Below are positions 9,316 through 54,038 of a stretch of DNA of 64,000 bases, piece by piece. The number at the start of each line of letters is the position of its first letter. Positions within the stretch are counted from its first letter, which is position 1. The stretch is from an uncultured Candidatus Saccharibacteria bacterium (GTDB lineage Bacteria > Patescibacteriota > Minisyncoccia > 2-02-FULL-40-12 > GWA2-44-9), in NCBI GenBank assembly GCA_964491455.1, contig CAZBFM010000001.1:149388-213387 (forward strand). Direction: 5' to 3'. The position numbers were made by a program, and so were the translations under genes. The notes beneath the pieces are model-generated. The model did no database searches. It was not told where the DNA came from and saw nothing but the letters and a program-made list of their open reading frames with translations.

Positions 9316-9825
9316 CTATTGTAGGAGCTTTCCCCATGCAGCTCGTTGGCGAGGGGAGAGATGCTGCGCTGACGATATCGCGTCTTGGAGATTGCTTACT
9401 GGAAACGATAGCACATCATTGGGCTCGAGATTGCGACTGCCAATTTCGTTTGCGAGAGCTGAGGCAGCCGCAACGCGCTCAATGCCGTCTAGCTTGATAA
9501 TGGGGTCGCTTGATGCGCAGTACAGGTCAATCGCACGCGACGACAAGGAATAGACCCCGTCACCCGGTAGGGCAAGCACATCGATGGAAGCGGCAACGGG
9601 TGTCTCGCGAGGAGTCTCATACGAGTCAGTCCGTGCGGGGAGCCGGTCCCAAAGAATTGAAGCTGTAAGCGCAATAATAGCAATCAGAATAATTGTTGTT
9701 ATCAACGTGTTGCTATGTGAGCGAAGCCACGTATGCAACTGGCCTCCCCATCCTGGACGAGGCGTGAATAGAGGACCGGGAAGTGAAGCGCCGGTGGGGT
9801 CCTGGCGTGGATGGAGTGAGTTCAT
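9316..9825 (-). CDS. Hypothetical single-pass membrane protein
   Basis: ORF with an internal TM ([19 protein letters not shown]). It overlaps the RF1-like gene stop by 4 nt, which suggests an operon. Confidence 0.45.
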
Positions 9826-10655
9826 GTCGTGGGCGGAGAGTCTTTGAGTCCATCCTGTAGAGCGGTGATGATTCGATCAAGGTCACCATTAAGAATCTTA
9901 GGAATGTTGCTCCAGCTCTCTTTGATGCGGTGGTCGGTTATGCGATCTTGAGGAAAGTTGTAAGTGCGAATCTTTTCGCTACGATCGCCAGTGCCGACTT
10001 GTTTTCTTCGCTCTTCTGAAACATTTCCTGTTTGTTCAAGACGATTCAATTCGGCAAGCTTGGCGCGCAGAAGCACCATCGCCTGTTCTCTGTTGGCAAG
10101 CTGTGAGCGTTCAGCACGCGCGGAGATAACGATACCAGTGGGTTTGTGGTGGACACGTACTGCCGTTTCGACTTTGTTGACATTCTGTCCTCCGGGACCT
10201 CCTGCGCGAGAGAATGTGACTTCGATGTCGCTTGGATTAATAAAGACTTCCTGCTCGGTTGCTTTCTTGAGTACGGCAACGGTAGCGGTGCTGGTGTGTA
10301 CGCGGCCGGACTTTTCTGTTTCAGGAACGCGTTGCACGCGATGGGCGCCGGATTCATTTTTCATCGCGTCATAGGCGCCGGTCCCCGATATTTCGAATGA
10401 TCCATACTTAAGTCCACCGAGTGACGTATCGTTTGATTCGATCGTCGAGAACTTCCATCCTTTTGCAATGGCATATTTCTTGTACATTTGAAACAATTCC
10501 ATCGCAAAGAGGGCGGATTCGTCACCACCCGCTCCTGGTCGGATCTCGACAATAGCTTCATTGCCAGGCGCAGATGAGCCGCCACCCTTTTGTTTCTTGG
10601 CCTGTTCTGCCCAGTATCGCCAGTCCTGTTGAAGATTTGGATCGATGTCCTCCAT
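9822..10655 (-). CDS. prfA: Peptide chain release factor 1-like protein lacking N-terminal domain 1
   Basis: [27 protein letters not shown] (PxT-type decoding motif) and [13 protein letters not shown] (GGQ). The [15 protein letters not shown] block that sits near residue 115 in canonical RF1 is here at residue 42. An in-frame stop lies 9 codons upstream of the start. Confidence 0.8.
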
Positions 10656-10670
10656 GGTGATGCAAAGCAA

Positions 10671-13312: not shown

Positions 13313-13395
13313 GGGGTGTGGTGGAGTGGTCAATCACAACAGACTGTAAATCTGTCGGCCTTAGGCCTACGTAGGTTCGAATCCTACCGCCCCCA
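13313..13395 (+). tRNA. tRNA-Tyr (anticodon GUA) with long variable arm
   Basis: Anticodon arm cagactGTAaatctg, long variable arm cggccttaggcc, T-arm gtaggttcgaatcctac. Confidence 0.8.
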
Positions 13396-13417
13396 CATGT
13401 TCACGAAGAGAACATCG

Positions 13418-13654
13418 ATGTACTACGTCTATATCTTGCGTTGTAGAGGAGGGAGGCTCTACACGGGTATCGCGAAAGATGTCGAGTCGAGGTTTCTGCA
13501 GCATCAGAGAGGCAAGGGCGCTCGCTTCACGCGTGCGCATCCACCCGAGAGTATTGTCTATTGCGAGCCCGTAGCAACGCGATCCGATGCGCTGAAGCGT
13601 GAATATGCGGTCAAACAGATGAGTCATGAGCAGAAGTTACAGCTTGTTTCATAG
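13418..13654 (+). CDS. GIY-YIG domain nuclease (UPF0213/YhbQ-like), small
   Basis: MYYVYILRCRGGRLYTGIAKDVESRFLQHQRGKGARFT is a GIY-YIG core. Track ORF 13316 reads through tRNA-Tyr, so the real start is the ATG at 13418 (or 13396). Confidence 0.75.
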   Translation: MYYVYILRCRGGRLYTGIAKDVESRFLQHQRGKGARFTRAHPPESIVYCEPVATRSDALKREYAVKQMSHEQKLQLVS

Positions 13655-14557: not shown

Positions 14558-14723
14558 GCGATCTCCTTTGGTTGTCGAAATACTACTGAAATGATGGCAC
14601 AAATAATAACAAATGTCAAAGTATTAGAATGAACTTTAATACAATGACAAGATTGTGCAACTTGATTCGTGTTGTAGGATATATACTCGGTCGATTCGTA
14701 TAACTAACAAAAAGGAAACCACC

Positions 14724-15734
14724 ATGGAAAAAAAGTCACTTCTCGCGCAGCATTTCACTCCAGAGATAGAAGCGCAGCTAGCGAGCGTTCGCACGGCGAA
14801 TGGATTCACAGTCGCTGATGTCGTCCGTTCAGGGCAGCAAAACCCTGATAGTAGCGTTGGAGTGTATGCCGGCGATGAAGAGTCGTATAAGGCCTTTGCC
14901 CCGCTCCTAGATCCGGTGATCGAGAGCTACCACGGTCATGGTCCTGAGGATACGCACCAGCGAGACCTTTCTGTCGAGAGTCTCGGGGATGTGCACGATT
15001 TGGACCCGAGTGGCGAGCGCATTGTCTCCACTCGTATTCGCGTTGGACGCAATCTCAAGGGCTTTGCTTTTGCCCCTGCGATTACCAAGGAGTCGCGCGA
15101 AGAAGTCGAGCGACAGGTGGTCGCTGCGCTTTCGAGTCTTACCGGTGAGCTTGCGGGTACCTATTACCCATTGAGTGGCATGAGCGAAGAGACCGCATCC
15201 AAGCTTATCGCTGATCACTTCCTCTTTAAGGAGGGCGACCGTTTTCTCGAGAGCGCCGGAGCGAATCGCGATTGGCCGAGTGCCCGTGGTATTTTTCATT
15301 CTGCAAACAAGCAGTTCTTGGTGTGGGTGAATGAAGAAGACCAGCTTCGCATCATCTCCATGCAACCTGGTGGAAATGTGCGCGAGGTGTTCGCGCGGTT
15401 GTCGACTGCAATAGGGGAGCTCGAAAAGAAGCTCACCTTCGCCTACGATGATCGTCATGGATACCTCTCGAGTTGTCCCACGAATCTTGGAACCGCGATG
15501 CGCGCGAGTGTGCACGTGAAACTACCAAAGCTTGGCGCAACTGACGCGCTCAAGGAAGAATGTGCAAAGCTCGGCTTGTCAGTGCGTGGTATCCACGGGG
15601 AGCACTCCGAGAGCGAGGGTGGCGTGTATGACATTTCCAACAAGCGTCGTCTTGGTGTCAGTGAGGCTGAAGCGGTGAAGCTTATGGCTCATGGGGTTCA
15701 GCACCTACTGGAACTCGAGAGTACGCTCGCGTAA
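14724..15734 (+). CDS. ATP:guanido phosphotransferase of the phosphagen/arginine-kinase type, with N-terminal substrate-specificity domain
   Basis: The active-site signature CPTNLGT is present. The N-domain motif VGVYAGDEESYKAFAPLLDPVIESYHG resembles arginine kinases. Flanked by RIRVGRNLKGFAFAP and GGVYDISNKRRLG. The ATG has AAAGGAAACC 7 nt upstream. Confidence 0.85.
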   Translation: MEKKSLLAQHFTPEIEAQLASVRTANGFTVADVVRSGQQNPDSSVGVYAGDEESYKAFAPLLDPVIESYHGHGPEDTHQRDLSVESLGDVHDLDPSGERIVSTRIRVGRNLKGFAFAPAITKESREEVERQVVAALSSLTGELAGTYYPLSGMSEETASKLIADHFLFKEGDRFLESAGANRDWPSARGIFHSANKQFLVWVNEEDQLRIISMQPGGNVREVFARLSTAIGELEKKLTFAYDDRHGYLSSCPTNLGTAMRASVHVKLPKLGATDALKEECAKLGLSVRGIHGEHSESEGGVYDISNKRRLGVSEAEAVKLMAHGVQHLLELESTLA

Positions 15735-31166: not shown

Positions 31167-31598
31167 CTATTCGCTGAGCATCGAAATCGCTTGCTGTGCT
31201 TCTCGCGCGGTCATGCCAGTTCGCCAATTTGTGCGGACAAGTCGATGGCCATACGGGGTAAGGTGCGCGCCGATTGCATCGTCAAGAATGACGAAATTCG
31301 TAACGGGTGCTATTTGCTCATTGAGCCATTCGGTGATCGCATCACCGCGAGGCTCGCGATAGCGAGTAACTCCGATTACGGAAGCGTCTGCGATGCCACG
31401 ATTGCGGAACAAGACTCGTAGCTCATGCTCCGAAATTGTTCTCCCAAGCGCTCCAGTCACGACAATCTTGGCACCCGTTGTTTCAACGATACGACGTAGG
31501 CTTTGGGAGGGGATTTCATCGAATCCATCAAATCGCGTGCGCGCAGCTGATTGCTGGCAATTCATAACGCCATCGATGTCGAGAAATATAATTTTCAT
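31167..31598 (-). CDS. HAD-like domain protein (phosphatase-like, small)
   Basis: MKIIFLDIDGVMN is a HAD motif I. 143 aa. Confidence 0.6.
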   Translation of the reverse strand: MKIIFLDIDGVMNCQQSAARTRFDGFDEIPSQSLRRIVETTGAKIVVTGALGRTISEHELRVLFRNRGIADASVIGVTRYREPRGDAITEWLNEQIAPVTNFVILDDAIGAHLTPYGHRLVRTNWRTGMTAREAQQAISMLSE

Positions 31599-32770: not shown

Positions 32771-33363
32771 CGACTCTCAAGTGCGTGACGGAGGGTTATT
32801 TCGTCGGCATATTCAAGATGCGTACCTGTCGAAAGACCGCGTGCAAGTCTGGTTGTGCGTACCACTGGGATGGAGCGGAAGAGGTCGCGAAGGTACATCG
32901 CCGTCATCTCGCCGCTTGAGGTCGGATTTGTTGCTAGTACTAATTCAACGGTGCCGGCTTCTCGTGCAATGCGATCGACGCGTTCGGCTAGCTCACGGAT
33001 GCGGAGGTGTTCAGGCCCAATGTTGTTTACGGGCGCTATTGAGCCGCCAAGGACATGATAGAGGCCTTTCCAGAGGCCTGAACGCTCGACCGACTGCAGA
33101 TCCGTAATCATTTCAACCACCATGATAGCCTTTGCATCGCGATGATTGTCTCGGCACACTGAGCAGAGATCGCCGTCGGAGACATTAAAGCATTCGGGGC
33201 ATTTCTTAATGCGCGTCTTTAATTCACGGATCGCGTCACCGAGTTCATCGAGTTCCGATTGATGCCGGTCCAAAAGTGCAAGCACCATACGTGAAGCGGC
33301 CCGAGGTCCTATGCCAGGAAGTTTTTGAAAGAGTTTTGCGACCGATGAAAAGAGAGGATCCAT
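32764..33363 (-). CDS. recR: Recombination protein RecR
   Basis: LPGIGPRAASRM (HhH), CPECFNVSDGDLCSVC (C4 zinc finger), Toprim region. Confidence 0.9.
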   Translation of the reverse strand: MDPLFSSVAKLFQKLPGIGPRAASRMVLALLDRHQSELDELGDAIRELKTRIKKCPECFNVSDGDLCSVCRDNHRDAKAIMVVEMITDLQSVERSGLWKGLYHVLGGSIAPVNNIGPEHLRIRELAERVDRIAREAGTVELVLATNPTSSGEMTAMYLRDLFRSIPVVRTTRLARGLSTGTHLEYADEITLRHALESRK

Positions 33364-34733
33364 TAGAGGAAGTCAGAATCAGCGTGTACTGTATCAATTT
33401 CCGAGAACTCAAGGTTTTCAGGATTGATGTGAAAATCAATATCACCGGTTGGACCATTGCGGTGTTTGGCTATCATGAGCGTTGCCATGTTCGCCTTGCC
33501 TTCTTCTTGAGCGCGCTGGAAATTCACCTTGTCATCGCGATGAATGAACATAACGACGTCTGCGTCTTGCTCGATGGAACCCGAATCGCGCAAATCTGAA
33601 AGTCGAGGGCGTGCCCCAACTTCGCGGTTTTCCACGGCACGCGATAGCTGAGACAGGGCAACGACTGGAATATTGAGCTCCTTGGCAAGACCCTTGAGCC
33701 CGCGAGATATTTCAGTGACTTGTTGAACGGCGGAGTCGTAGTTGCGTCGCGCGCTCATGAGCTGTAAGTAATCGATGAACAGAATACCGAGTCCATGCTC
33801 GGCTTTGAGCCGTCGTGCCATTGCTCGCATTTGCATAATGTTGAGGCCTGGGGTGTCGTCGATGAAGATTGGCATATCGCGTAGCGATGATATGGCGTTC
33901 GTAATTTTAAGAAAATCATTGTACTCACCGTCATGACTCAACTTGCCTGTGCGCAATTTCCACAACGACGCTTTGGCTTTCGAAGATATAAGACGGTCGA
34001 CGACCTGGTCGACGCTCATTTCTAAGCTAAAAATACCAACAGGCGTTTGCTGCTCCGCGATGCGACGCGCTAAATCGATGGTGAATGCCGTTTTACCAAC
34101 TGACGGTCGAGCAGCAAGAATGATGAGGTCCGATTTCTGGAAGCCGCCCAGTGTCTGGTCGAGCTTGATGTGATTGGTGCCAACGCCGCGCAGGCGCCCG
34201 TCATCTTGCGTCTGGATGCGGTCCATCGCGCGATCGAGCTCGCTGGAGAGTGCATCAAACTTATTTGAAAGTGTTTTCTGGGTGACTGCGAAGAGTTGCT
34301 GTTCAGCTTCACCCAGAATTGCGTCAATGTCCTCGTCTTCACGGTGCGCAAGCGACTGCAACCGATTGGATACGTCGAGGAGGTCGCGAAGACTCTTCTT
34401 ACGTTGAACGATGCGCGCATATGTTTGCACGTGTGCAGATGTTGGCACTTCGCTCGCAAGTGACGTGAGGAACGCAGACCCTCCGATAGCGTCGAGCTGG
34501 CCCTTATCTTTCAAGCGAGTGCTCACTGACAGGATGTCTATGTTTTCACGGCCCTCCCAGAGATCGGTCAACGCGGCCCAAATGAGCTGGTGACTGCGTT
34601 GGTAGAAGTGGTCCGCAGAGACCATGTCAACCACGCGATTGATCGCCTCGCGATCTGTGAGGAGTGATCCTATGAGTGATTTCTCAGCTTCTAGGTTTTG
34701 TGGAGGACCTTTGTCGGGCAGCGATGTTGGCAT
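33363..34733 (-). CDS. dnaB: Replicative DNA helicase DnaB
   Basis: LIILAARPSVGKTAFTIDLA (Walker A), LGILFIDYLQLM, and SQLSRAVENR; an N-terminal DnaB domain precedes them. Confidence 0.9.
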   Translation of the reverse strand: MPTSLPDKGPPQNLEAEKSLIGSLLTDREAINRVVDMVSADHFYQRSHQLIWAALTDLWEGRENIDILSVSTRLKDKGQLDAIGGSAFLTSLASEVPTSAHVQTYARIVQRKKSLRDLLDVSNRLQSLAHREDEDIDAILGEAEQQLFAVTQKTLSNKFDALSSELDRAMDRIQTQDDGRLRGVGTNHIKLDQTLGGFQKSDLIILAARPSVGKTAFTIDLARRIAEQQTPVGIFSLEMSVDQVVDRLISSKAKASLWKLRTGKLSHDGEYNDFLKITNAISSLRDMPIFIDDTPGLNIMQMRAMARRLKAEHGLGILFIDYLQLMSARRNYDSAVQQVTEISRGLKGLAKELNIPVVALSQLSRAVENREVGARPRLSDLRDSGSIEQDADVVMFIHRDDKVNFQRAQEEGKANMATLMIAKHRNGPTGDIDFHINPENLEFSEIDTVHADSDFL

Positions 34734-43983: not shown

Positions 43984-44550
43984 TTATTTGACACGTTCAA
44001 CGTACTGACCGGTTTCGGTGTTGACGATAATTTCATCGCCCTCGTTGACGAATAGCGGAACGTTGAGCGTTGCGCCGGTGTCGATCTTCACCTGCTTTGT
44101 GCCACCCGTTGCAGTGTCGCCACGGATACCAGGAGGTGCTTCTACAATCTTAAACTGCATCTTAATCGGCAGCGAGATATTTATAACATCGCCATTCCAA
44201 TTGAGTGATTCAAGAATCGTGTTTGGTTTGAGAAATTGCGCACTTTCACCCACAAGTTCGTTGCTCAATTCAAAGCGATCCGATGGATCTTTGGGATTGA
44301 CGAACATAAACTTGTCGCGATGTGCGTACAAAAACTTGACCTCTTTACGCTCGACGTCGGCTTCTTCAAAAAAATCAGATTGTGCGAGGTTACGCTCAAG
44401 AACCTTCCCGTTTAGGAGGTTGCGCATGCGCGTCTGAACGACGGGACGTCGCTGCTGCATCTTGAGGTGGTGGGTTTCCAACACGATATACGGCGCGTCT
44501 TCGTAGATGAAATATGTTTTTGGCTTGAGGTCGTTGACTCCGAGTGACAT
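43984..44550 (-). CDS. efp: Elongation factor P
   Basis: MSLGVNDLKPKTYFIYEDAPYIVLETHHLKMQQRRPVVQTRMRNLLNGKV... Confidence 0.9.
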   Translation of the reverse strand: MSLGVNDLKPKTYFIYEDAPYIVLETHHLKMQQRRPVVQTRMRNLLNGKVLERNLAQSDFFEEADVERKEVKFLYAHRDKFMFVNPKDPSDRFELSNELVGESAQFLKPNTILESLNWNGDVINISLPIKMQFKIVEAPPGIRGDTATGGTKQVKIDTGATLNVPLFVNEGDEIIVNTETGQYVERVK

Positions 44551-44622: not shown

Positions 44623-45549
44623 TTAGACCATACACGCCCCATCAATTGCCGAGCGTCCTCGCAAGAAATCGGCAGCGTTTTGCCGAGTAGAGCCTTCGAG
44701 TTGTAGCTCATCAATGGCAATGTGCGTATCAGCGCAGGAAATCCTTAACTCTGGTCCACGTGCATCAACGTTGCCGGGCGTCGTTGCCGGTTTCTGTGAT
44801 ACGTGTGCGCGCACGACGTTGAGCGTCTTTCCATCCCACGTTGTCCAGGTTCCAGGATTGTAGCCTAGTGCGCGAATGTGATTCAGTATGTCCTGCGCCG
44901 GAAGATTCCAGTTGATGCGACCATCTTCTCGCGTAAACTTTTTCGTGAACGTCGCTTCCGTGTCGTTTTGAGGTCGCGGAGTAATTTCACTGGTCAGGTA
45001 TCGAGGTAGTACGTCTAGAAGAAGCTGCGCTCCCAATTCAGAGACTTCACGCTCTGCTTCGGGTGTTGCAAGGGTGGGAGCAATGGTCCAGGCTCGTTGG
45101 GCGAGGATCGGTCCGTGGTCTTGCTGGTCATCAAGCAACATAATACTGACACCTGAGTCGGAGATGCCTCGCTGGATCGCTGTTGCCACGGGTGATGGGC
45201 CGCGAAGCTTGGGAAGTAGCGATGGGTGGATATTAAGCCACCCATGACGTGTAGAGGCGAGGTATTTCTGGGGAATAAGCTTCCCGTAGGCTACAACAAT
45301 GCATACATCAGCCTTGAGAGCCTCAAATTGGGCCCAGGAAGCATCATCTTTAAGGGTTGGGAGCTTGAGCACTGGAATGCCCAACAGCTCCGCCTCGAGG
45401 GCAATGGGGCTTGGCGTGAGCGTCTTTTTGCGCCCGAGAGGCTTGTCGGGGGTTGTAACCACGGCGATTGGCCGATAGGGCGAATTTACCAAGGCACGTA
45501 GCGCGGGTAGAGCAAAGGACGGTGTCCCGAAGAAAACGATGTTTGACAT
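44623..45549 (-). CDS. fmt: Methionyl-tRNA formyltransferase
   Basis: IVFFGTPSFALPAL, WLNIHPSLLPKLRGPSP (SLLP motif), and a C-terminal beta-barrel. Confidence 0.9.
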   Translation of the reverse strand: MSNIVFFGTPSFALPALRALVNSPYRPIAVVTTPDKPLGRKKTLTPSPIALEAELLGIPVLKLPTLKDDASWAQFEALKADVCIVVAYGKLIPQKYLASTRHGWLNIHPSLLPKLRGPSPVATAIQRGISDSGVSIMLLDDQQDHGPILAQRAWTIAPTLATPEAEREVSELGAQLLLDVLPRYLTSEITPRPQNDTEATFTKKFTREDGRINWNLPAQDILNHIRALGYNPGTWTTWDGKTLNVVRAHVSQKPATTPGNVDARGPELRISCADTHIAIDELQLEGSTRQNAADFLRGRSAIDGACMV

Positions 45550-45616
45550 TATTAGAAAAATATGCTATAATTGATTCACGAAGCTATGAGGCTTCACCTA
45601 CGAGCTTGGAGGCTCC

Positions 45617-45808
45617 ATGGACAAGTTCTTTTCGTTTTTGTGGCAGCCGCGCATCTTCGTTCGGATGTGCATCGCGGGAGTAGTTTGCATTGTCATCGCT
45701 GATCTGTTGTATTCGGTGACATTCCTTGCGATCGGGTTCGGGCTTATGGCCCTCGCGGCGATCACGTTCATATGGGAGGATAGCAAGCAGTATCCCGAGA
45801 TTCTGTAG
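45617..45808 (+). CDS. Hypothetical small membrane protein (63 aa)
   Basis: Two hydrophobic helices, followed by the terminator at 45827..45853. It sits on the opposite strand between def and fmt. Confidence 0.3.
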   Translation: MDKFFSFLWQPRIFVRMCIAGVVCIVIADLLYSVTFLAIGFGLMALAAITFIWEDSKQYPEIL

Positions 45809-45826: not shown

Positions 45827-45853
45827 AAGAGGCCTTCTGGCCTCTTTTATTTT
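45827..45853 (+). terminator. Rho-independent terminator
   Basis: aagaggcc-ttct-ggcctctt followed by ttatttt. Confidence 0.6.
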
Positions 45854-46314
45854 GCCATTTTACTGCGCTCTCGAATAGTGGTGCCGCGGAGGTGATCGGT
45901 TTCGTGTTGCAACACCCGAGCAAGCATGCCACGCGCTCTGAATTTTACACGTTCGCCATTGTTACCATCGATGGCTTTGAACATAATTTTTTTGGGGCGA
46001 CCAACATTCACCCAAAAGCCAGGAATCGAAAGGCATCCTTCCTCGAGCTCGTCGCGCTCAATGCCGTATTCAGTTATCTCGGGATTTACATACGCGGAAG
46101 GCACGCCATGTTCCGTGGCGAGCTTCTCGTCGATGATAAAGAGGGCCTCCGGACGACCAACCTGATTGGCGGCGAGGCCGATGCCGTTGTTGGCGAGCAT
46201 AGCAACCTTCATGTCGGATATGAGTTCCGTAAATACGCCAGCCTTAATGTCAGTCACAGAAATCTTCTTAGCTATTTTTGAGAGAATAGGATGAGGGACG
46301 TGCGTGAGCTCCAT
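45847..46314 (-). CDS. def: Peptide deformylase
   Basis: GIGLAANQVG, EGCLSIPG, QHETDHLRG (HExxH). Confidence 0.9.
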   Translation of the reverse strand: MELTHVPHPILSKIAKKISVTDIKAGVFTELISDMKVAMLANNGIGLAANQVGRPEALFIIDEKLATEHGVPSAYVNPEITEYGIERDELEEGCLSIPGFWVNVGRPKKIMFKAIDGNNGERVKFRARGMLARVLQHETDHLRGTTIRERSKMAK

Positions 46315-46326
46315 ACGAATATTATC

Positions 46327-48252
46327 TCACGAGATGCTTCGCGGGTCAATATCCACCAACCATCCATCGGGCAGGTGAGCTAAGAGCTCAGACAAACGAG
46401 CGGAGGGGAGTGTACTCTTGATGATGATTGTGTTTGACCATTTGCCGGCACTTTTTTCGACAAGCGTCGGAGCGGGTCCTAGCAGCTGAGTGCCGCGAGC
46501 TTTTAGATGCGCGATCGCGCGGGTAAGTCGGTCAGCTCCCACTGCTGCGGCACGACTTGATGCGGAGCGGTCACGGTGGCTAAACGTCAGCTTGATGATT
46601 CTTGAGTATGGGGGCCAACGAAGTTGCTTGCGGATAGAGAGTTCATCGGTAAAGTAGTCGCTCCATCGTCGTTGCTCGATATAGGGCGTGAGGCCGTCAT
46701 CCTGGTATGTTTGCAAAATGAGTCGCTCAGGATGAAAATCAGCAAGCTTTTCGAGGGTGAGTACGAGTCGGTCCTGTGCGCGATAGTCAGGATTGGATGT
46801 AAGTAAATCAAGATTAGGAACAATGACCGTTGAGAAATTTCGTACGTAGCGGTAGCTGAGCACCATACTCGTGGCAACCAGAATTGGTTGTAGTAAGGAG
46901 TCCAGCTCGGTGAACGTACGGCTCGCATCATCTGATTCAAGAATGAGATCAGAATCTAGGATGGGGATTTTCGGTTTCGGATATCCATACCGATCAAGGA
47001 GCGTCTGTATCGCCTCTACAAGCTTTTGACTCCCCGGCGAGCCCATCGGTGCCACTGCACCCGCTTTGCAGGTCGGACACTGAGGTGGCACGGATTGGTA
47101 CGCGGCGCATCGATAGCACACCAGCATATTCTCGCTGGTACGATGCCATCGCATGGGAGAAGAGCAGTTTTGGCACTCCACGCTGTGGTGGCATCGACGA
47201 CAACGCGCTGTCATAGCATACCCACGACGAGCAGAGTAGATGAGCAAAGGCTCTGCGCGCTCATAGGCATCGAGAATGGCATGCTCTGCCTGTCGGCTAA
47301 AAAGACCATGATGCCCCGCAGTTTCTTCTTCTTGCGCGCTTGAAATAGTAATCGCAGGCCACGCTGGTTTATCGAGTGTCACGGGTAGCGCCTTGGCTTG
47401 TTGAAGATGAAATTGCACGGTGCTCAGCGCTGATGTGAGCCATGAAATCGTAGCTCCATGCAAGAGGGCAAGATGGCGTGCAGTGTCGGATGCATTCAGT
47501 CGAGGCGTCATGTCGCTTTTGTAGAGTTCATTGAGCGGATCTTCGACAATCACATGACGCAATGATGACCACGGTAAAAATAGGGCATTCCTTGTCCCGA
47601 TCACATTGGTGATGGTTCCATCGAGAACGCCACGATAGATGCGCTTTAATTCAGTCGCTGGAAGTCCGGAGCGCACTAGGGTTGTAGTGGCGGTGATCTT
47701 CCGCTGGAGTGATTCGGCAATGATGCGGTCAGGAACAAGGATGAGAGTTTGACCCGACGATGATGCGTGAATTGCATTGATTCGACGAATGACTCCATCG
47801 GGATTCGTAACCGCGAGGTCGCTTTTCGGAGGTGCGGTACACGCTGGATTTGTATTGAGCGGACTGTGATCGATGGAGGCGCCGCGTTTGCCAATGGAGA
47901 GTGGAGCTATCGTAGTAAGCGCCGTTGCGAGTGAGCACGCATAGTGATTCGATAGCCATCTGGCCAGCTCAATCTGATGATGAGAAAGCTGCGGTGATAG
48001 CGCGACAATCGTCACGATCCGTTTCAATGAGAAGTCGGACTTCTTCACTGACATCTTCGCGCTTCGAATATCACGTGTCTCATGTACGAGTGCGGTGACG
48101 GCTCTGCGACCTATGGACACCCGCACGAGGCTACCTCGGGGAAGCTCATCGTTGCAGAAATAATCAAGCACGCTCGGTGCGTTGGCGGGCAGCTTGATGA
48201 GGGGAGTGACGCTGACGATATACATAACCTCATTGAAGCATATTGTCGTCAA
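46327..48252 (-). CDS. priA: Primosomal protein N' (PriA)-like, with zinc-binding Cys cluster but degenerate Walker A and DExH motifs
   Basis: N-terminal 3'BD-like region. CRRCHHSVECQNCSSPMRWH...CYRCAAYQSVPPQCPTCK is a PriA Cys-rich zinc region. Aligned to E. coli PriA, the GSGKT position reads AVTNPDG and DEEH reads EDPL. Sits in a priA-def-fmt arrangement. Confidence 0.75.
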   Translation of the reverse strand: MTTICFNEVMYIVSVTPLIKLPANAPSVLDYFCNDELPRGSLVRVSIGRRAVTALVHETRDIRSAKMSVKKSDFSLKRIVTIVALSPQLSHHQIELARWLSNHYACSLATALTTIAPLSIGKRGASIDHSPLNTNPACTAPPKSDLAVTNPDGVIRRINAIHASSSGQTLILVPDRIIAESLQRKITATTTLVRSGLPATELKRIYRGVLDGTITNVIGTRNALFLPWSSLRHVIVEDPLNELYKSDMTPRLNASDTARHLALLHGATISWLTSALSTVQFHLQQAKALPVTLDKPAWPAITISSAQEEETAGHHGLFSRQAEHAILDAYERAEPLLIYSARRGYAMTARCRRCHHSVECQNCSSPMRWHRTSENMLVCYRCAAYQSVPPQCPTCKAGAVAPMGSPGSQKLVEAIQTLLDRYGYPKPKIPILDSDLILESDDASRTFTELDSLLQPILVATSMVLSYRYVRNFSTVIVPNLDLLTSNPDYRAQDRLVLTLEKLADFHPERLILQTYQDDGLTPYIEQRRWSDYFTDELSIRKQLRWPPYSRIIKLTFSHRDRSASSRAAAVGADRLTRAIAHLKARGTQLLGPAPTLVEKSAGKWSNTIIIKSTLPSARLSELLAHLPDGWLVDIDPRSIS

Positions 48253-48329: not shown

Positions 48330-49145
48330 ATGAGTCTGAAAACGTTCATCGAAAAAACGCGAAAACTATCGACGTCAAAGCCAGTTGTCGATAGCCCCAC
48401 GGATCGTGCCGCGAGAGTCCTCGCTCAATTCTTTAGTGGGTACCTCGCACGGTTTGAGGCGGACCCTGCCCTCTTGTGTGAGGGAAGTACGGATTGCCGT
48501 TTTACCGAAAACCTTCTCCCCGCGATTCTGTACGACGGAATCGAGGAGTTGGCGGCATCCGAAGACAAGGAATGTGAACGCCTGAGGTATCTCTATTCAC
48601 TACACCAGCGACTGCCTATTGTGTCATTGGAGGGTCTTGAGGCTACCCATCCAAAGTCCACGAGTCTCGCTCGTTCAAACCTCATTCGAATTATCGAGAG
48701 ATTCGTGGAGGACACTGCAGGGCAAAGCGCTGCAGTGCGCGTTGAGCGCTATATTAATACGCCTCTGTATGCTTTGAGGCACAGTTTCGATGGCTTTCTT
48801 CGAACGGTGTACCGAAAGGGACTCTATGCGCTTGTGCGACAACACGCGCGTGTGTCACGAGAGTCGCGCGGTACATTTGGCCGAACAGCGATTACCACGT
48901 ACGTCGCTGACGGAGAGGTTCGCATTACATTTTCACGCACACCAAATGGACGCAAGGCAAGCGAGCTGCGACTTCTGCGATTTTGCGTATCCGATACTAC
49001 CCGTGGAACGAATACGGAATTCTATGGCTGTGATGTTGATCTGAAAACCGCACTCGCGATGATCGAAGATGTGAGAACGCATTGGCCGTCGGAGGTGCAG
49101 AGGCAGCGTAAGGCCTTCAGGGCACACATCGCCCGATGCGATTGA
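48330..49145 (+). CDS. Hypothetical protein (271 aa)
   Basis: AAGGAG RBS 6 nt upstream of ATG 48330. No family recognised. Confidence 0.5.
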   Translation: MSLKTFIEKTRKLSTSKPVVDSPTDRAARVLAQFFSGYLARFEADPALLCEGSTDCRFTENLLPAILYDGIEELAASEDKECERLRYLYSLHQRLPIVSLEGLEATHPKSTSLARSNLIRIIERFVEDTAGQSAAVRVERYINTPLYALRHSFDGFLRTVYRKGLYALVRQHARVSRESRGTFGRTAITTYVADGEVRITFSRTPNGRKASELRLLRFCVSDTTRGTNTEFYGCDVDLKTALAMIEDVRTHWPSEVQRQRKAFRAHIARCD

Positions 49146-49206: not shown

Positions 49207-50514
49207 ATGCTTTACTCTATGAACGTAAAAGTACGAATTGCCCCGTCACCAACGGGACATCTGCATATTGGCACTGCTAGAACGGCGCTATTTAATTGGC
49301 TGTTTGCGCGTCATCACGGTGGTGAGTTTATTGTTCGAATCGAAGACACAGATGTCGAGCGCTCAAAGAAGGAATTTGAGCATAATATAGTAAGTGGTTT
49401 GCGCTGGCTCGGTATCGATTGGGATAACACTGAGCTCATTCGTCAATCAGAGCGCTTGCCTGCGTATCGCGCTCGACTCGAAGCGATGCTTGCTAGCGGC
49501 GCTGCAGCATGGCGTACATATTCGGAAGCAGAACAACTCGAGATGACGCAAGCGGGACGAGCTGCGCGCGATAAGGTAATTGTTCTTGTCGATGGGAATG
49601 ATCCCGAGCGTGAGATTGTATTTGACGATATCATCCGTGGCAATGTTTCCGTTCGCTGTAAGCATATCGGCCAAATTGTCCTCGCCAAAGATCTCGACAC
49701 GCCATTGTATAACTTTGCCGTAGTAGTCGATGATATCGATATGGAGATTACGCACGTAATTCGTGGTGAAGATCACATTTCCAATACTCCCAAGCAGCTG
49801 CTGATCTACGAGGCATTGGGTGCGACGGCACCGCATTTCGCGCACCTGCCCCTTATTTTGGGGTCAGATCGAAGTAAGATGTCAAAGCGTGACGGCGCGA
49901 CCAATATGGATGATTATCAAAAGGACTACCTACCCGACGCCCTCGTGTCGTTTATGGGTCAACTTGGGTATACATATGATCAGGAATTGCTGGATAAGGA
50001 TGAAATGGCGATGCAATTTGATCTCTCGAAAGTTCACTCATCAGGTGCAATCTTTGACATCCGAAAATTGCGCTGGACGAATTCGCAGTACATCAAACGG
50101 ATGGCTCCCGATGCCTTTCGTGCTCGTATTGGCATGCCTGAGCTTTCCGATGCTGCCGTTGCTATCATGACGGAACGATTAGAGCAGTTGTCTGATATCG
50201 AACAGTTCTCATATCTTTGGAAGCGACCTGAGTATGAGCCGGAAGTCCTTCTCTGGAAGGAAGATACCCGTCAGACCGCAGTGAGAGCTCTTCAGGCATG
50301 CCTTGAGCTCGCACTGAATAATGAGCTACATCTTGAGCAGCTCGATGCACTTGCTGTGCAATCCTTCGACGCAAAGAAAGGGAGTGTCTATTGGCCTCTT
50401 CGAACATCGCTCTCCGGGCTGCGAAATAGCGCTGCTCCTCTTGATATCGCAAATGCACTTGGACGAGATGAAACTATCAAGCGAATTGAGTTTGCGATTG
50501 CCATGCTCTCATGA
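49207..50514 (+). CDS. gltX: Glutamyl-tRNA synthetase
   Basis: RIAPSPTGHLHIGTARTALFNWLFAR (HIGH) and KMSKRDG (KMSKS). The start may be the ATG at 49219. Confidence 0.9.
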   Translation: MLYSMNVKVRIAPSPTGHLHIGTARTALFNWLFARHHGGEFIVRIEDTDVERSKKEFEHNIVSGLRWLGIDWDNTELIRQSERLPAYRARLEAMLASGAAAWRTYSEAEQLEMTQAGRAARDKVIVLVDGNDPEREIVFDDIIRGNVSVRCKHIGQIVLAKDLDTPLYNFAVVVDDIDMEITHVIRGEDHISNTPKQLLIYEALGATAPHFAHLPLILGSDRSKMSKRDGATNMDDYQKDYLPDALVSFMGQLGYTYDQELLDKDEMAMQFDLSKVHSSGAIFDIRKLRWTNSQYIKRMAPDAFRARIGMPELSDAAVAIMTERLEQLSDIEQFSYLWKRPEYEPEVLLWKEDTRQTAVRALQACLELALNNELHLEQLDALAVQSFDAKKGSVYWPLRTSLSGLRNSAAPLDIANALGRDETIKRIEFAIAMLS

Positions 50515-51767
50515 AACGTTTCGCATTTCTTTTAACGTTCCTAACGGTTGTTTGTTTGATTGGTGAAAGTGTCATTCACGCGCAAACGACCGATGAGTTG
50601 CGCATGGCGGAGTTGCAATTTCAAATCGATACGCTCGAGCGTGAGGCATCAGCGAAGCGCGCGATTATTGCCACCACTCATGAACAGCAAGACTCGCTCA
50701 AGAAAGCTATTGCATTGATACAGAATCAAATTGCCGCGGTGCAGTCCGAACTTTCAGCGACTGCTGCGAAAATCGATAAGACAAAAATCCAGATATCATC
50801 GGTTGAGCAAGCAATCATTGATAAGCGCGCTGAAATGACTCGCAAGCGTGAGACCATTGGGAGGATGGTGTTCTACTTGGATAGGACGGATCAGGATAGC
50901 GTTATTGCAAATCTCTTTAAATACGAAAATCTTTCTGAGTTCGTTGCGCAGGTGCATGATCTTGGTCGCGTGCAAAATGAAATCATGAATGCTATCAAGG
51001 ATATCAAAGACGCGAAGGAATCGCTTCAGCAAGATAAAAGCGATCTCGAGGCGCAACAAAACAAGTTACAACAATTAAGTGATGAAGCATACCAACGAGC
51101 CAATCAACTCGCTGGTGCGAAGGGCGAAAAAGCTCGTGTGCTTACCGTCACGAAAGGCCAAGAAGCAACATACCAAAAGCAGTTAGCGCAAATTGAAGAG
51201 CAAAAATCTGCGTACTTTATGCAGCTACGCGAGCTTGAATTAAAGGTGGTTTCCGGCGGGCTCTACATCGTGCATATTACGGCTAGCTCCGTCCCCGCCA
51301 AGGGTACAAAACTATTTACGGCACCAGAGGACCGTGCATATATCACGCAGGGTTATGGCTGTACGAAGTATGCTCGTTGCAATAACAAGCGAGGGCCGTA
51401 CGGTGGCGCCCCGCATAATGGCGTCGATTATGCCGCTGGCTATGGAAGTCCCATCAAAGCAATTGGCGCAGGAAAGATTGTGGCCAATGGACTCAACAAT
51501 AGTGGCTGGGGCAATTGGATTGCGATTCAACACACGAATAATATGGTTTCATTGTACGGGCACATGAGCTCGTTTGCGGGGCTGTCTGTTGGGGCAACTG
51601 TTGAGGGAGGTCAAGTCATTGGCTATGAAGGACGCACTGGCGCAGCAACCGGATCGCATCTGCATCTTTCGTTGTACAAGGACTTCTTTACGTATATTAA
51701 AGATGCCAATGGTCAGCTCAACTTCAATTACTTCGATGGCACGCTCAATCCTCTCAACTACATGTAG
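50511..51767 (+). CDS. M23-family peptidoglycan metalloendopeptidase with N-terminal signal/TM and long coiled-coil (EnvC-like)
   Basis: HNGVDYAAGYGSPIKAIGAGKIV and GSHLHLSLY are M23 motifs (HxxxD, HxH). The N-terminal 250 aa are coiled coil. Confidence 0.8.
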   Translation: MKRFAFLLTFLTVVCLIGESVIHAQTTDELRMAELQFQIDTLEREASAKRAIIATTHEQQDSLKKAIALIQNQIAAVQSELSATAAKIDKTKIQISSVEQAIIDKRAEMTRKRETIGRMVFYLDRTDQDSVIANLFKYENLSEFVAQVHDLGRVQNEIMNAIKDIKDAKESLQQDKSDLEAQQNKLQQLSDEAYQRANQLAGAKGEKARVLTVTKGQEATYQKQLAQIEEQKSAYFMQLRELELKVVSGGLYIVHITASSVPAKGTKLFTAPEDRAYITQGYGCTKYARCNNKRGPYGGAPHNGVDYAAGYGSPIKAIGAGKIVANGLNNSGWGNWIAIQHTNNMVSLYGHMSSFAGLSVGATVEGGQVIGYEGRTGAATGSHLHLSLYKDFFTYIKDANGQLNFNYFDGTLNPLNYM

Positions 51768-52609: not shown

Positions 52610-53281
52610 ATGTCGCGCGTCGTTATAGATATTGAAACTGTCGGCGTTGAGTTTACATCGCTCGACGCGCAAGCCCAAGAATACTTGCTCAAGCACGCTT
52701 TAACACCAGAACAAAAAGATGCGGTTCCGGAGACACTGAGCTTCTCTCCATTGACTGGTCAGATTGTAGCGATCGCCATTCTCAATCCTGACACAAAGAA
52801 GGGCGCTGTGTATTATCAGGCGCCTAATAGCGCGCCTAGTGAATTCGAAGAAGACGGTATTCTGTATGCATCGGGCTCTGAGGCAGATATCCTTGAGAAG
52901 TTTTGGCGTGCCATAGGATTTTACGAACAGGTCGTTACGTTTAATGGCCGCTCATTCGATGGGCCATATCTCATGGTACGATCTGCGGTTAACAAAGTGA
53001 GACCAACGAAGAATCTTGTCCCGTATCGCTATGGTGATGATCATATCGATCTATTCGATAGACTGGGCTTCTTTGGTGCAGTGCGGCGGACGATGAGTTT
53101 GCATATGTGGTGTCAGGCGTTCGGAATTCGATCCAGTAAATCGGGCGCCATTAATGGATACGAGGTTCCACGATACTTCAAGGAAGGTAAATATATCGAT
53201 ATTGCGCGCTACTGTTTTGATGATATACGTGCCACTGCGGAGTTGTTTGAGTATTGGAATACCTATATCAATATTCGTTAG
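52610..53281 (+). CDS. DEDDy-type 3'-5' exonuclease (RNase H-like fold, PolB-exonuclease-related/YprB-like); may start earlier at ATG 52505
   Basis: Exo I VVIDIETVGV (D-x-E), Exo II VVTFNGRSFDGPYL, Exo III YCFDDIRATAEL (Y-x3-D). Confidence 0.7.
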   Translation: MSRVVIDIETVGVEFTSLDAQAQEYLLKHALTPEQKDAVPETLSFSPLTGQIVAIAILNPDTKKGAVYYQAPNSAPSEFEEDGILYASGSEADILEKFWRAIGFYEQVVTFNGRSFDGPYLMVRSAVNKVRPTKNLVPYRYGDDHIDLFDRLGFFGAVRRTMSLHMWCQAFGIRSSKSGAINGYEVPRYFKEGKYIDIARYCFDDIRATAELFEYWNTYINIR

Positions 53282-53282
53282 C

Positions 53283-54038
53283 ATGGAGTACGACTCCGTC
53301 GAGACATTTCGGGAGCGTGCTGGGTATACGATTCAGGGTGTCTGGTATCCTCGAGTCACCGCGATCTTGTCAATTAAAGCCAAGCCCGCACTTTTACGCT
53401 ATTACGGGGGCATGAGAAGCTTTAAGGCTGCTGATGATGCAAAGGAAGCGAGCGCTCGCGAAGGTACGATGGTTCATGAAGCAGTTGCGGCTATTGCGGC
53501 TGGACGGCATGATGTGATCGTTGACCCGCTCGTGCGACCATCAGTCGATGCATTTCATGAATTCTTGCGAAATAACAATGTCGAACCGATTCTCATCGAA
53601 GAGCGCGTTATTCACCAGCAGTATGGATATGCAGGTACTGTAGATATGGTCGCAAGAATCAATGGAACCGTCGGTGTGCTTGATATCAAAACAGGAAAAC
53701 GGATGTACCGCGATTACGGCATTCAAACTGCCGCCTACGTACAGGCCGTTGCGCAAAGGTCAGATGTGCCTACTCCTACAACGAGTTGGGTGTTACGGTT
53801 GGACCAGTGCCGAACCTGTGTCCTTTGTGGGGTCACGCTACGCACAAAGGGTGGTATGTTCCGGGTCAGTGCAGGAGGCAAGGGCTGCACGCATAGCTGG
53901 CTTCCTATGCAAGGCATTTTTGAATTTGAAGAGATGCATGATGCTGCAAATAACTTTAAAGCCTTTCTCGCTTCAAAGGAATTATGGCAGTGGGAGCATC
54001 AAGCGTATATCCGTCAGCTCACTGCGGAGCTACGGTAG
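53283..54038 (+). CDS. PD-(D/E)XK nuclease of the Cas4/RecB-like family with a C-terminal Cys cluster
   Basis: GTVDMVARINGTVGVLDIKTGK (D...D/ExK), IQTAAY (QxxxY), then CRTCVLCG...GC (C-x2-C-x2-C-x24-C). The ATG at 53283 directly follows the TAG of the upstream exonuclease. Confidence 0.7.
   Translation: MEYDSVETFRERAGYTIQGVWYPRVTAILSIKAKPALLRYYGGMRSFKAADDAKEASAREGTMVHEAVAAIAAGRHDVIVDPLVRPSVDAFHEFLRNNNVEPILIEERVIHQQYGYAGTVDMVARINGTVGVLDIKTGKRMYRDYGIQTAAYVQAVAQRSDVPTPTTSWVLRLDQCRTCVLCGVTLRTKGGMFRVSAGGKGCTHSWLPMQGIFEFEEMHDAANNFKAFLASKELWQWEHQAYIRQLTAELR

Follow-up and report, generated by a model that had tools for sequence, protein, structure and literature searches.

A PriA ortholog without its ATPase motifs, probably an ATP-independent pseudohelicase in replication restart

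The DNA considered here is a 64-kb stretch of a bacterial genome (64,000 nucleotides of contig CAZBFM010000001.1, referred to below in its full length as 'the window') that encodes PriA in an unusual form. [quoted passage not shown] A 2017 review named Deinococcus as the only exception to the conserved helicase activity of PriA (PMC5778457). The D. radiodurans protein has no ATPase or helicase activity, yet binds single-stranded DNA (ssDNA), forks and DnaB (Lopper et al. 2015, PMC4504706). In E. coli, the ATPase-dead K230R variant (priA300) supports PriA-PriB but not PriA-PriC restart (PMC5778457, PMC13594977). E. coli PriA from which the winged helix was deleted (structure 6DCR) folds and was crystallized, and that deletion and K230R together mimic the window PriA. 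These engineered variants are, however, single lesions in an organism that uses PriB, DnaT and DnaC, whereas in the clade of the window protein the two losses occur together in nature and have become fixed in the lineage. A full-text search of the literature found no report linking PriA to Patescibacteria, the candidate phyla radiation (CPR) or Parcubacteria in this sense; a search on PriA pseudohelicases returned only the Deinococcus case as relevant, and one on actinobacterial PriA helicase motifs returned nothing relevant.

Compared with canonical PriA, the window protein is shorter (632 versus 732 amino acids) and is without the winged helix, the Q motif, Walker A, DExH and motifs III and VI, whereas eight zinc cysteines, motifs Ia, Ib and IV, the 3'BD pocket, the CTD signature and the priA-def-fmt neighborhood are shared. 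It resembles D. radiodurans PriA in that Walker A and Walker B are both degenerate across a lineage, and it would probably also behave as that protein does. The lesion is deeper than in Deinococcus-Thermus PriA, which keeps a P-loop with its lysine changed to arginine (PMC4504706); in the window clade the loop, motif VI and winged helix are deleted. The two groups belong to different phyla, and because intact sister PriAs exist within Patescibacteria the origin of the window form is independent of that in Deinococcus. A PriA pseudohelicase is therefore already known, and the Parcubacteria case is an independent and more radical one. We consider it probable that the window gene is the genome's PriA ortholog turned obligate pseudohelicase, which would recognize abandoned forks without ATP and mark them for the reloading of DnaB.

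The gene lies on the minus strand in an uninterrupted open reading frame (ORF) at 46327..48252, of 641 codons counted from a TTG. The N-termini of close homologs match an ATG at 48225 (the 91%-identical protein P0001 has 632 amino acids), and we therefore placed the most likely true start at that ATG, giving a predicted product of 632 amino acids, and dropped the TTG at 48252. Residue numbers below refer to this product unless stated otherwise. The features of the gene, all on the minus strand, are as follows.

46327..48225, minus strand: coding sequence of PriA, the putative pseudohelicase, 632 amino acids (stop codon 46327-46329; the mechanically called ORF runs up to the TTG at 48252)
47896..48225, minus strand: 3'-DNA-binding domain, residues 1-110 (PF17764), with the family-invariant Y22, G31, W90 and Y95 retained
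47824..47895, minus strand: unstructured linker, residues 111-134, replacing the ~100-residue winged-helix domain of canonical PriA
47362..47823, minus strand: degenerate RecA-like lobe 1, residues 135-288, with motif Ia LILVPD, motif Ib GTRNALFLP and, in part, the aromatic-rich loop (YKSDM..PR) retained
47794..47814, minus strand: Walker A remnant AVTNPDG, residues 138-144, a one-residue turn without Gly-Lys-Thr
47533..47547, minus strand: Walker B/DExH remnant VEDPL, residues 227-231, opposite E. coli IDEEH
47206..47361, minus strand: first part of lobe 2, residues 289-340, with motif IV SARRGY retained
47056..47205, minus strand: cysteine-rich region, residues 341-390, with four CxxC pairs (eight cysteines) for two zinc sites
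46666..47055, minus strand: second part of lobe 2, residues 391-520, with motif V degenerate and the motif VI arginine finger replaced
46735..46749, minus strand: motif VI replacement KLADF, residues 493-497, with a 6-residue deletion (canonical QVAGRAGR)
46330..46665, minus strand: PriA C-terminal domain, residues 521-632 (PF18074), with E528, R532, PP(F/Y) (here PPY), GPxP and DxDP retained

A preliminary description of this DNA had identified the product as a PriA homolog that keeps the N-terminal domain, the zinc module and the C-terminal domain, and sequence, profile and fold comparisons all agree with that identification. Pfam matches to PriA_3primeBD (PF17764, E = 7.6e-12) and PriA_C (PF18074, E = 4.9e-9) were both above cut-off, while DEAD, ResIII and Helicase_C gave no Pfam match in the protein and the Zn_ribbon_PriA model gave it no score despite the eight cysteines. 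The protein scored 189.4 bits against TIGR00595, the NCBIfam priA equivalog model (cut-off 230.35), and at best 209 bits against NF004066 (cut-off 813). Searching the Protein Data Bank (PDB) with phmmer matched the E. coli and K. pneumoniae proteins at ~1e-25, in alignments that begin after the Walker A region. Of the attributes by which a PriA is recognized, the protein has the 3'BD, the two-lobe superfamily 2 (SF2) core fold, the four CxxC pairs, the CTD and the priA-def-fmt position; it is without the winged helix and motifs I, II and VI, and its score lies under the curated equivalog threshold. The actinobacterial PriA family (PRK14873) was rejected as its home, because models of that family score far lower (38-81 bits, versus up to 209 on general PriA models). 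In UniProt, the M. tuberculosis protein is reported to be marked as one without detectable helicase domains, and Actinobacteria may be another lineage whose PriA has lost recognizable helicase motifs.

HMMER aligned residues 168-614 (in the numbering of the 641-codon ORF) to E. coli PriA 246-696, and at Walker B set E. coli VIVIDEEHDSSYK opposite HVIVEDPLNELYK of the window protein, with DEEH facing the EDPL of VEDPL as had been described. AVTNPDG was likewise found where it had been placed, in the same alignment columns as GVTGSGKT. In multiple alignments LTSAL occupies the columns of GSATP (motif III) and VATSMVLSYRY those of GTQMxAKGxxF (motif V), and a 24-residue linker stands where the winged-helix domain of ~100 residues is missing. 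Regular-expression searches for GxGK[ST], [GA]xxxxGK[ST], DExH/D and GRxGR found none of these anywhere in the window PriA or in 30 close relatives; each of the 12 canonical PriAs aligned with these proteins carries all of the motifs. In the AlphaFold model, strand beta1 (135-140) is joined to helix alpha1 (142-155) by a single residue, where the model of an intact control has a 5-residue loop, so that the P-loop is physically absent from the modeled protein.

The claim that the ATPase motifs are ablated thus stands on alignments, motif searches and the AlphaFold model. A displaced but intact GxGKT or DExH, which had been named beforehand as the observation that would speak against it, was searched for and found in neither the window PriA nor its relatives, and the profile alignment that had been proposed as a check confirmed a loss wider than was claimed, one that also takes in motifs III, V and VI and the winged helix. 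Comparison of sequences confirmed that the window PriA has no Walker A, DExH, motif VI arginine finger or winged helix. Since the winged helix is absent from the intact short PriAs of Patescibacteria too, that domain is not universal in the PriA family.

To describe what was kept, we compared 125 alignment columns that are >=85% conserved in 26 intact PriAs with the same columns in 158 sequences that share the motif loss ('dead' sequences), scoring a column as kept when at least 60% of the dead sequences have the same residue and as lost when fewer than 20% do. By this measure 60 of the 125 columns were kept and 32 of the 125 were lost. The lost columns comprise the Q-motif glutamine, motif I in full, the T and Q after motif Ia, A-T in motif III, K-G in motif V and motif VI in full, which we take to be the nucleotide-binding, hydrolysis and coupling set of SF2 helicases. 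The kept columns include Y22, G31, W90 and Y95 of the 3'BD, LxP of motif Ia, GxRxAxFxP of motif Ib, Y235, P241 and Y243 of the aromatic-rich loop, RRG of motif IV, the T of motif V, H361, several charged residues of lobe 2, both acidic and basic, and the CTD signature (E528, R532, PP(F/Y), GPxP and DxDP). The zinc-binding region had been called intact and is so: the eight cysteines of its four CxxC pairs (C342/345/351/354/370/373/383/386) show no variation across the 43 aligned sequences and are >=99% conserved in the 158 dead ones. In E. coli PriA the motif IV arginines are R427/R428 and bind ssDNA within the pore, and H361 has as its counterpart H455, a residue of the CRR-UP interface (see below) that is required for restart in vivo (PMC13594977). 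The CRR and CTD are the best conserved parts in this column analysis. As judged from these columns, the loss is selective and not random, and the pattern is that expected if fork binding and CRR/CTD-mediated assembly were retained and the motor discarded.

The same lesions are spread across a large clade. A phmmer search over 1.84 billion cluster representatives returned 12,034 matches, the best 150 of which are mostly ~600-660 amino acids long, align end to end at 25-56% identity and are without Walker A and motif VI. When 158 full-length motif-less relatives (down to ~25% identity) were aligned, all 158 showed the lesions of the window protein, which answers the question, raised in the preliminary description, of whether the loss is conserved in related genomes. 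With a profile built from 26 diverse members, 648 clusters (at 90% identity) reached E <= 1e-40, with Walker A missing in 110 of 110 further profile matches listed; at 50% identity the clade is represented by >150 clusters. A relic hhhDEE stands in the Walker B columns of some distant members, and the P-loop and the arginine finger are gone from all. The named dead relatives belong to the Parcubacteria group (Yanofskybacteria, Taylorbacteria, Paceibacterota), taxon names existing for a minority of the matches. A search of genome contigs with the window protein returned three loci (L001-L003), and among public sequences the closest relative of the locus comes from a Candidatus Paceibacterota metagenome-assembled genome (MAG; L001, 91% protein identity). 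The MAGs of L002 and L003, whose dead PriAs are 60-62% identical, are labelled uncultured Candidatus Saccharibacteria, other named relatives being from the Parcubacteria group; this label is either an automated mislabel or a sign that the trait is wider than Parcubacteria.

A neighbor-joining tree built on 184 full-length sequences groups the 158 dead PriAs in one clade, which contains none of the 26 intact ones. The sister of this clade, and the nearest sequences outside it, are P0184 and P0185 (the latter from Candidatus Torokbacteria), which are 665-671 amino acids long, winged-helix-less and fully intact. A search with P0185 returned matches that carry all motifs in 118 of 119 cases, 58 of them being shorter than 700 amino acids. 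Such short (~640-670 amino acids) intact PriAs without a winged helix are widespread (P0142, P0184, P0185 and P0308, with loci L004-L006) and occur in Patescibacteria and in some other candidate phyla (NPL-UPA2, Omnitrophica). Those compared in detail, P0308 and P0185 (~650 amino acids), resemble the window PriA in lacking the winged helix but keep GxGKT, DEEH, SAT and QxxGRxGR, and are natural counterparts of the winged-helix deletion engineered in E. coli (6DCR); P0308 further shares the synteny of the window gene (at L005), and its model is apo-like. The simplest history suggested by these sequences is that a winged-helix-less, active PriA was present in Patescibacteria and that the ATPase was later lost in one descendant lineage, Parcubacteria sensu lato.

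The position of the gene argues for orthology. The genes that define it are the following.

45847..46314, minus strand: def (peptide deformylase), 12 nucleotides downstream of priA
44623..45549, minus strand: fmt (methionyl-tRNA formyltransferase)
43984..44550, minus strand: efp
49207..50514, plus strand: gltX-like tRNA ligase, divergent from priA
50511..51767, plus strand: M23 peptidase, divergent from priA
33363..34733, minus strand: dnaB, an intact replicative helicase (Pfam DnaB_C, E = 2.6e-94; DnaB, E = 5.4e-32) and presumed client of PriA

The order priA-def-fmt-efp was confirmed in the window. The conserved priA-def-fmt arrangement noted in the preliminary description therefore holds as a gene order; it is not necessarily a single operon, an ORF on the opposite strand lying between def and fmt. 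The intact 653-amino-acid P0308 (L005, in the Patescibacteria MAG GCA_028699085.1) lies in the same setting, with gltX and then the M23 peptidase gene leading away on one side and priA, def and fmt on the other, and this block is found in the window and also around the distant dead members P0085 (L007; 28% identity to the window PriA) and P0249 (L008; on a 733-kb scaffold). Because the block is shared with the locus of an intact PriA, we regard the window PriA as a positional ortholog and not an extra copy. Consistent with this, tblastn searches of the window and L001-L003 with three intact PriAs found only the known locus.

The gene is under constraint. Nei-Gojobori comparison of the window gene with its L001 ortholog (91% protein identity) gave a ratio of nonsynonymous to synonymous substitution (dN/dS) of 0.091, with dS of 0.60; the values for def, fmt and efp were 0.040, 0.135 and 0.024. 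Each structured part of the protein (3'BD, both degenerate lobes, CRR and CTD) gave 0.03-0.07, and the least constrained segment, residues 110-155 including the linker that stands in the place of the winged helix, gave 0.24. On this measure priA is under purifying selection, and it is not a decaying gene or pseudogene. AlphaFold2, run with a 43-sequence alignment, produced a complete and confident model of the window PriA (predicted local distance difference test, pLDDT, 91.4; predicted template modeling score, pTM, 0.90). All of its best matches in the PDB are PriA structures, the top Foldseek match being E. coli PriA (8fak_H, TM 0.84, E = 1e-38), with the two-lobe core fold retained.

E. coli PriA alternates between an apo-like CRR-DOWN conformation and a CRR-UP conformation, in which the CRR is turned by ~80-85 degrees and forms, with lobe 2 and the CTD, a pore around the lagging-strand ssDNA, and in which primosome partners dock (PMC10175261, PMC13594977). 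E. coli PriA enters this ssDNA-encircling state only after fork binding or unwinding. The window PriA model lies closer to CRR-UP, fork-bound 8fak_H (TM 0.84, root-mean-square deviation (rmsd) 4.6 Å) than to the apo or double-stranded-DNA-bound structures 6dcr (winged-helix-deleted E. coli PriA), 4nl4 and 6dgd (TM 0.66-0.69, rmsd 7.9-9.7 Å). The model of the intact control P0308 shows the reverse, with TM 0.82 and rmsd 4.2-5.1 Å to 6dcr, 4nl4 and 6dgd_A and TM 0.79 and rmsd 7.6 Å to 8fak_H. This contrast suggests that co-variation within the dead clade favors CRR-UP contacts, which we treat as a lead only.

If the window protein is a pseudohelicase in restart, it might work as follows. The 3'BD would bind a fork or D-loop and recognize the nascent leading strand's 3' end, and the pore that CRR, lobe 2 and CTD form together would enclose the single-stranded lagging-strand template, as in the CRR-UP state of E. 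coli PriA. DnaB would then be recruited directly, via SSB or via another loader, as proposed for D. radiodurans PriA, with no ATP used. Because a dead PriA cannot unwind a duplex lagging strand, its substrates would be only those forks and D-loops that already expose ~9 or more nucleotides of ssDNA; a duplex lagging arm would not be cleared by it, and the need to do so would either be rare or be served by another helicase. E. coli PriA itself dispenses with its ATPase on substrates that expose ssDNA, in the PriA-PriB pathway (PMC5778457, PMC13594977). On this account replication restart in an entire bacterial lineage probably relies on a 'dead' helicase.

Could priA be a non-functional, decaying and unused relic? 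All nucleotide-binding motifs and the winged helix are gone and the score falls under the NCBIfam priA equivalog cut-off, as a relic would lead one to expect; the ORF is, however, uninterrupted here and in hundreds of relatives, dN/dS is 0.09 (0.03-0.07 in the structured domains), the loss is selective, with 60 of the 125 highly conserved canonical columns kept including all eight zinc ligands, and the predicted fold is confident and complete, which leaves the relic a negligible or nearly negligible probability. The preliminary description had offered a scaffold and a non-functional protein as alternatives. The scaffold is supported, indirectly, by dN/dS, the clade-wide loss, the retained DNA-contacting motifs and the orthologous position, and the non-functional alternative is rejected because of them. 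An assembly error or an alternative genetic code was also rejected: hundreds of independent assemblies share the architecture, and neighboring genes, dnaB among them, translate normally. It seems quite improbable, too, that this is an extra, specialized paralog in a genome whose restart is carried out by a normal, ATP-hydrolyzing PriA encoded elsewhere. Such an arrangement would fit the facts that 64 kb of the genome is visible and that intact short PriAs occur in MAGs labelled Patescibacteria and 'Parcubacteria group'. It agrees poorly with the position of the gene, which is that of the intact L005 PriA and of the ~28%-identity dead PriAs of L007 and L008 in the same M23-gltX / priA-def-fmt block, with the tblastn searches, in which no second PriA appeared in the window or L001-L003, and with the tree, where the dead forms and the intact ones fall into sister clades without mixing. 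Such genomes are also very small, and duplicated replication genes are rare in them.

The retention of both RecA-like lobes under constraint, the two acidic residues in the place of Walker B (those of VEDPL, which the near clade conserves) and the hhhDEE of some distant members might instead indicate that a nucleotide or other energy source is still used through a non-canonical site, and that translocase or helicase activity survives. We find this scarcely plausible for a protein in which one residue connects beta1 to alpha1 in place of a P-loop and which has no conserved lysine, motif VI arginines, Q motif or motif III, given that K230R alone abolishes the ATPase activity of E. coli PriA (PMC4504706). 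Alternatively, the protein may have taken up another job as a structure-specific DNA clamp, which might for instance shield or mark a stalled fork or D-loop or keep polymerases out, and have no part in reloading DnaB; the fork-binding elements are retained and no loader partner was found in the window. The residues on which PriB docks in E. coli are moreover irrelevant here, PriB being known only from some Proteobacteria. Against a clamp, the gene occupies the ancestral priA locus and no other PriA was found in the window or L001-L003, the CRR, on which E. coli primosome partners dock (PMC10175261), and the CTD are the best conserved parts, and ATPase-dead Deinococcus PriA binds DnaB (PMC4504706); we consider a clamp unlikely.

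Several points weigh against an obligate pseudohelicase that marks forks for DnaB. We infer DNA binding, the binding of DnaB or SSB and the absence of ATPase activity from sequence and from models. The window covers 64 kb of the genome, and a second, active PriA or another restart factor may be encoded elsewhere. PriB, DnaT, DnaC, DnaI, DnaD and DciA were not found in a Pfam scan of ~60 window ORFs, nor was SSB, with only DnaB and RecR turning up. The neighbor-joining tree is crude, and long-branch or compositional attraction could mimic the monophyly of the dead sequences. The contrast between CRR-UP and CRR-DOWN comes from one AlphaFold model per protein and may reflect the make-up of the alignments.

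A bolder version of the pseudohelicase reading, which we hold to be possible though rather doubtful, is that the parcubacterial PriA is a natural 'locked-on' initiator. In its evolution the winged helix would have been lost first and the whole ATPase in one later event; the protein would rest in the CRR-UP, ssDNA-encircling state and would hand over DnaB directly. Restart in a major branch of the CPR would then proceed without a PriA motor and without the known adaptors PriB, DnaT and PriC. If this were true, it would provide a minimal PriA and a ready tool with which to separate fork recognition from unwinding.

Several further observations concern the sequence around priA. Directly upstream of its ATG (48226..48252, minus strand) the codons read ..CFNEV-M, and the relatives P0003, P0008, P0010 and P0014 (several with longer ORF calls) have ..WFNT(D/G)-M or WFNAR-M at this position. 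The underlying DNA contains a conserved element, TGGTTTAAT / TGCTTCAAT, that resembles a -10 box and lies 6-8 nucleotides ahead of the start codon; judged by its sequence it may be the promoter of a leaderless or very short-leader priA mRNA. Scanning for promoters and terminators around priA yielded no more matches than shuffled sequence did, and no convincing promoter of priA. Rfam and tRNA scans found six tRNAs and an L10 leader only, none of them near priA. Divergent from priA, an ORF of ~272 amino acids (48330..49145, plus strand) has a GAAGGAG ribosome-binding site before its ATG and no Pfam match; small unannotated ORFs between gltX and priA are also present in L007 and L008.

The ORF between def and fmt (45617..45808, plus strand) has 63 codons and encodes a very hydrophobic product (MDKFFSFLWQPRIFVRMCIAGVVCIVIADLL...), which by eye probably forms two membrane helices. 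It is preceded by a perfect TTGACA-17-TATAAT with a TG extension (45543-45571) and a GGAGG ribosome-binding site, and a terminator-like hairpin lies at 45827-45846. The ORF at the same position in L001 is only 39% identical, the flanking def and fmt being 94-97% identical; the def-fmt interval has a weak match in L003, and L007 has small opposite-strand ORFs there.

Elsewhere the window holds the usual housekeeping genes of a bacterium with a small genome, with ribosomal protein genes, mraZ/mraW, genes for a penicillin-binding protein (PBP) and a Mur ligase, dnaK/grpE/dnaJ/hrcA, tRNAs and recR. A few of its other genes stood out.

14655..15734, plus strand: ATP:guanido phosphotransferase carrying both PF02807 (N-terminal domain, E = 3e-25) and PF00217 (catalytic domain, E = 2e-76), an architecture of the phosphagen (arginine/creatine) type and not of the bacterial McsB type; phosphagen-type kinases are unusual in bacteria and unexpected in a Parcubacterium
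9822..10670, minus strand: RF1-type release factor (PET tripeptide, GGQ) of only ~277-282 amino acids, whose PCRF match starts at model position 100, so that from its sequence it appears to be without most of N-terminal domain 1; the end of the L31 gene lies 28 nucleotides upstream
53154..54038, plus strand: PD-(D/E)XK nuclease-family protein
13316..13654, plus strand: ORF with a GIY-YIG domain, whose mechanically called start overlaps tRNA-Tyr in a tRNA cluster
31167..31598, minus strand: protein with a HAD_SAK_2 ('Swiss Army Knife' RNA-repair HAD) domain

PriA counts as a helicase conserved in nearly all bacteria, and with Deinococcus as the first exception, a large branch of Parcubacteria would be a second, independent and much larger one. 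The clade amounts to a natural experiment supporting the view that the core job of PriA is structure-specific fork recognition and the nucleation of a primosome, and not unwinding, and also the view that the residues that survive (the 3'BD pocket, motifs Ia, Ib and IV, the CRR including its CRR-UP histidine, and the CTD) are those needed for that job. Should the CRR-UP resting state prove real, these proteins would offer a structural and biochemical model for the regulatory switch of E. coli PriA. The finding bears on how replication is maintained in bacteria with ultra-small genomes, and it implies that automated 'primosomal protein N'' or helicase annotations in such genomes overstate the activity of the protein.

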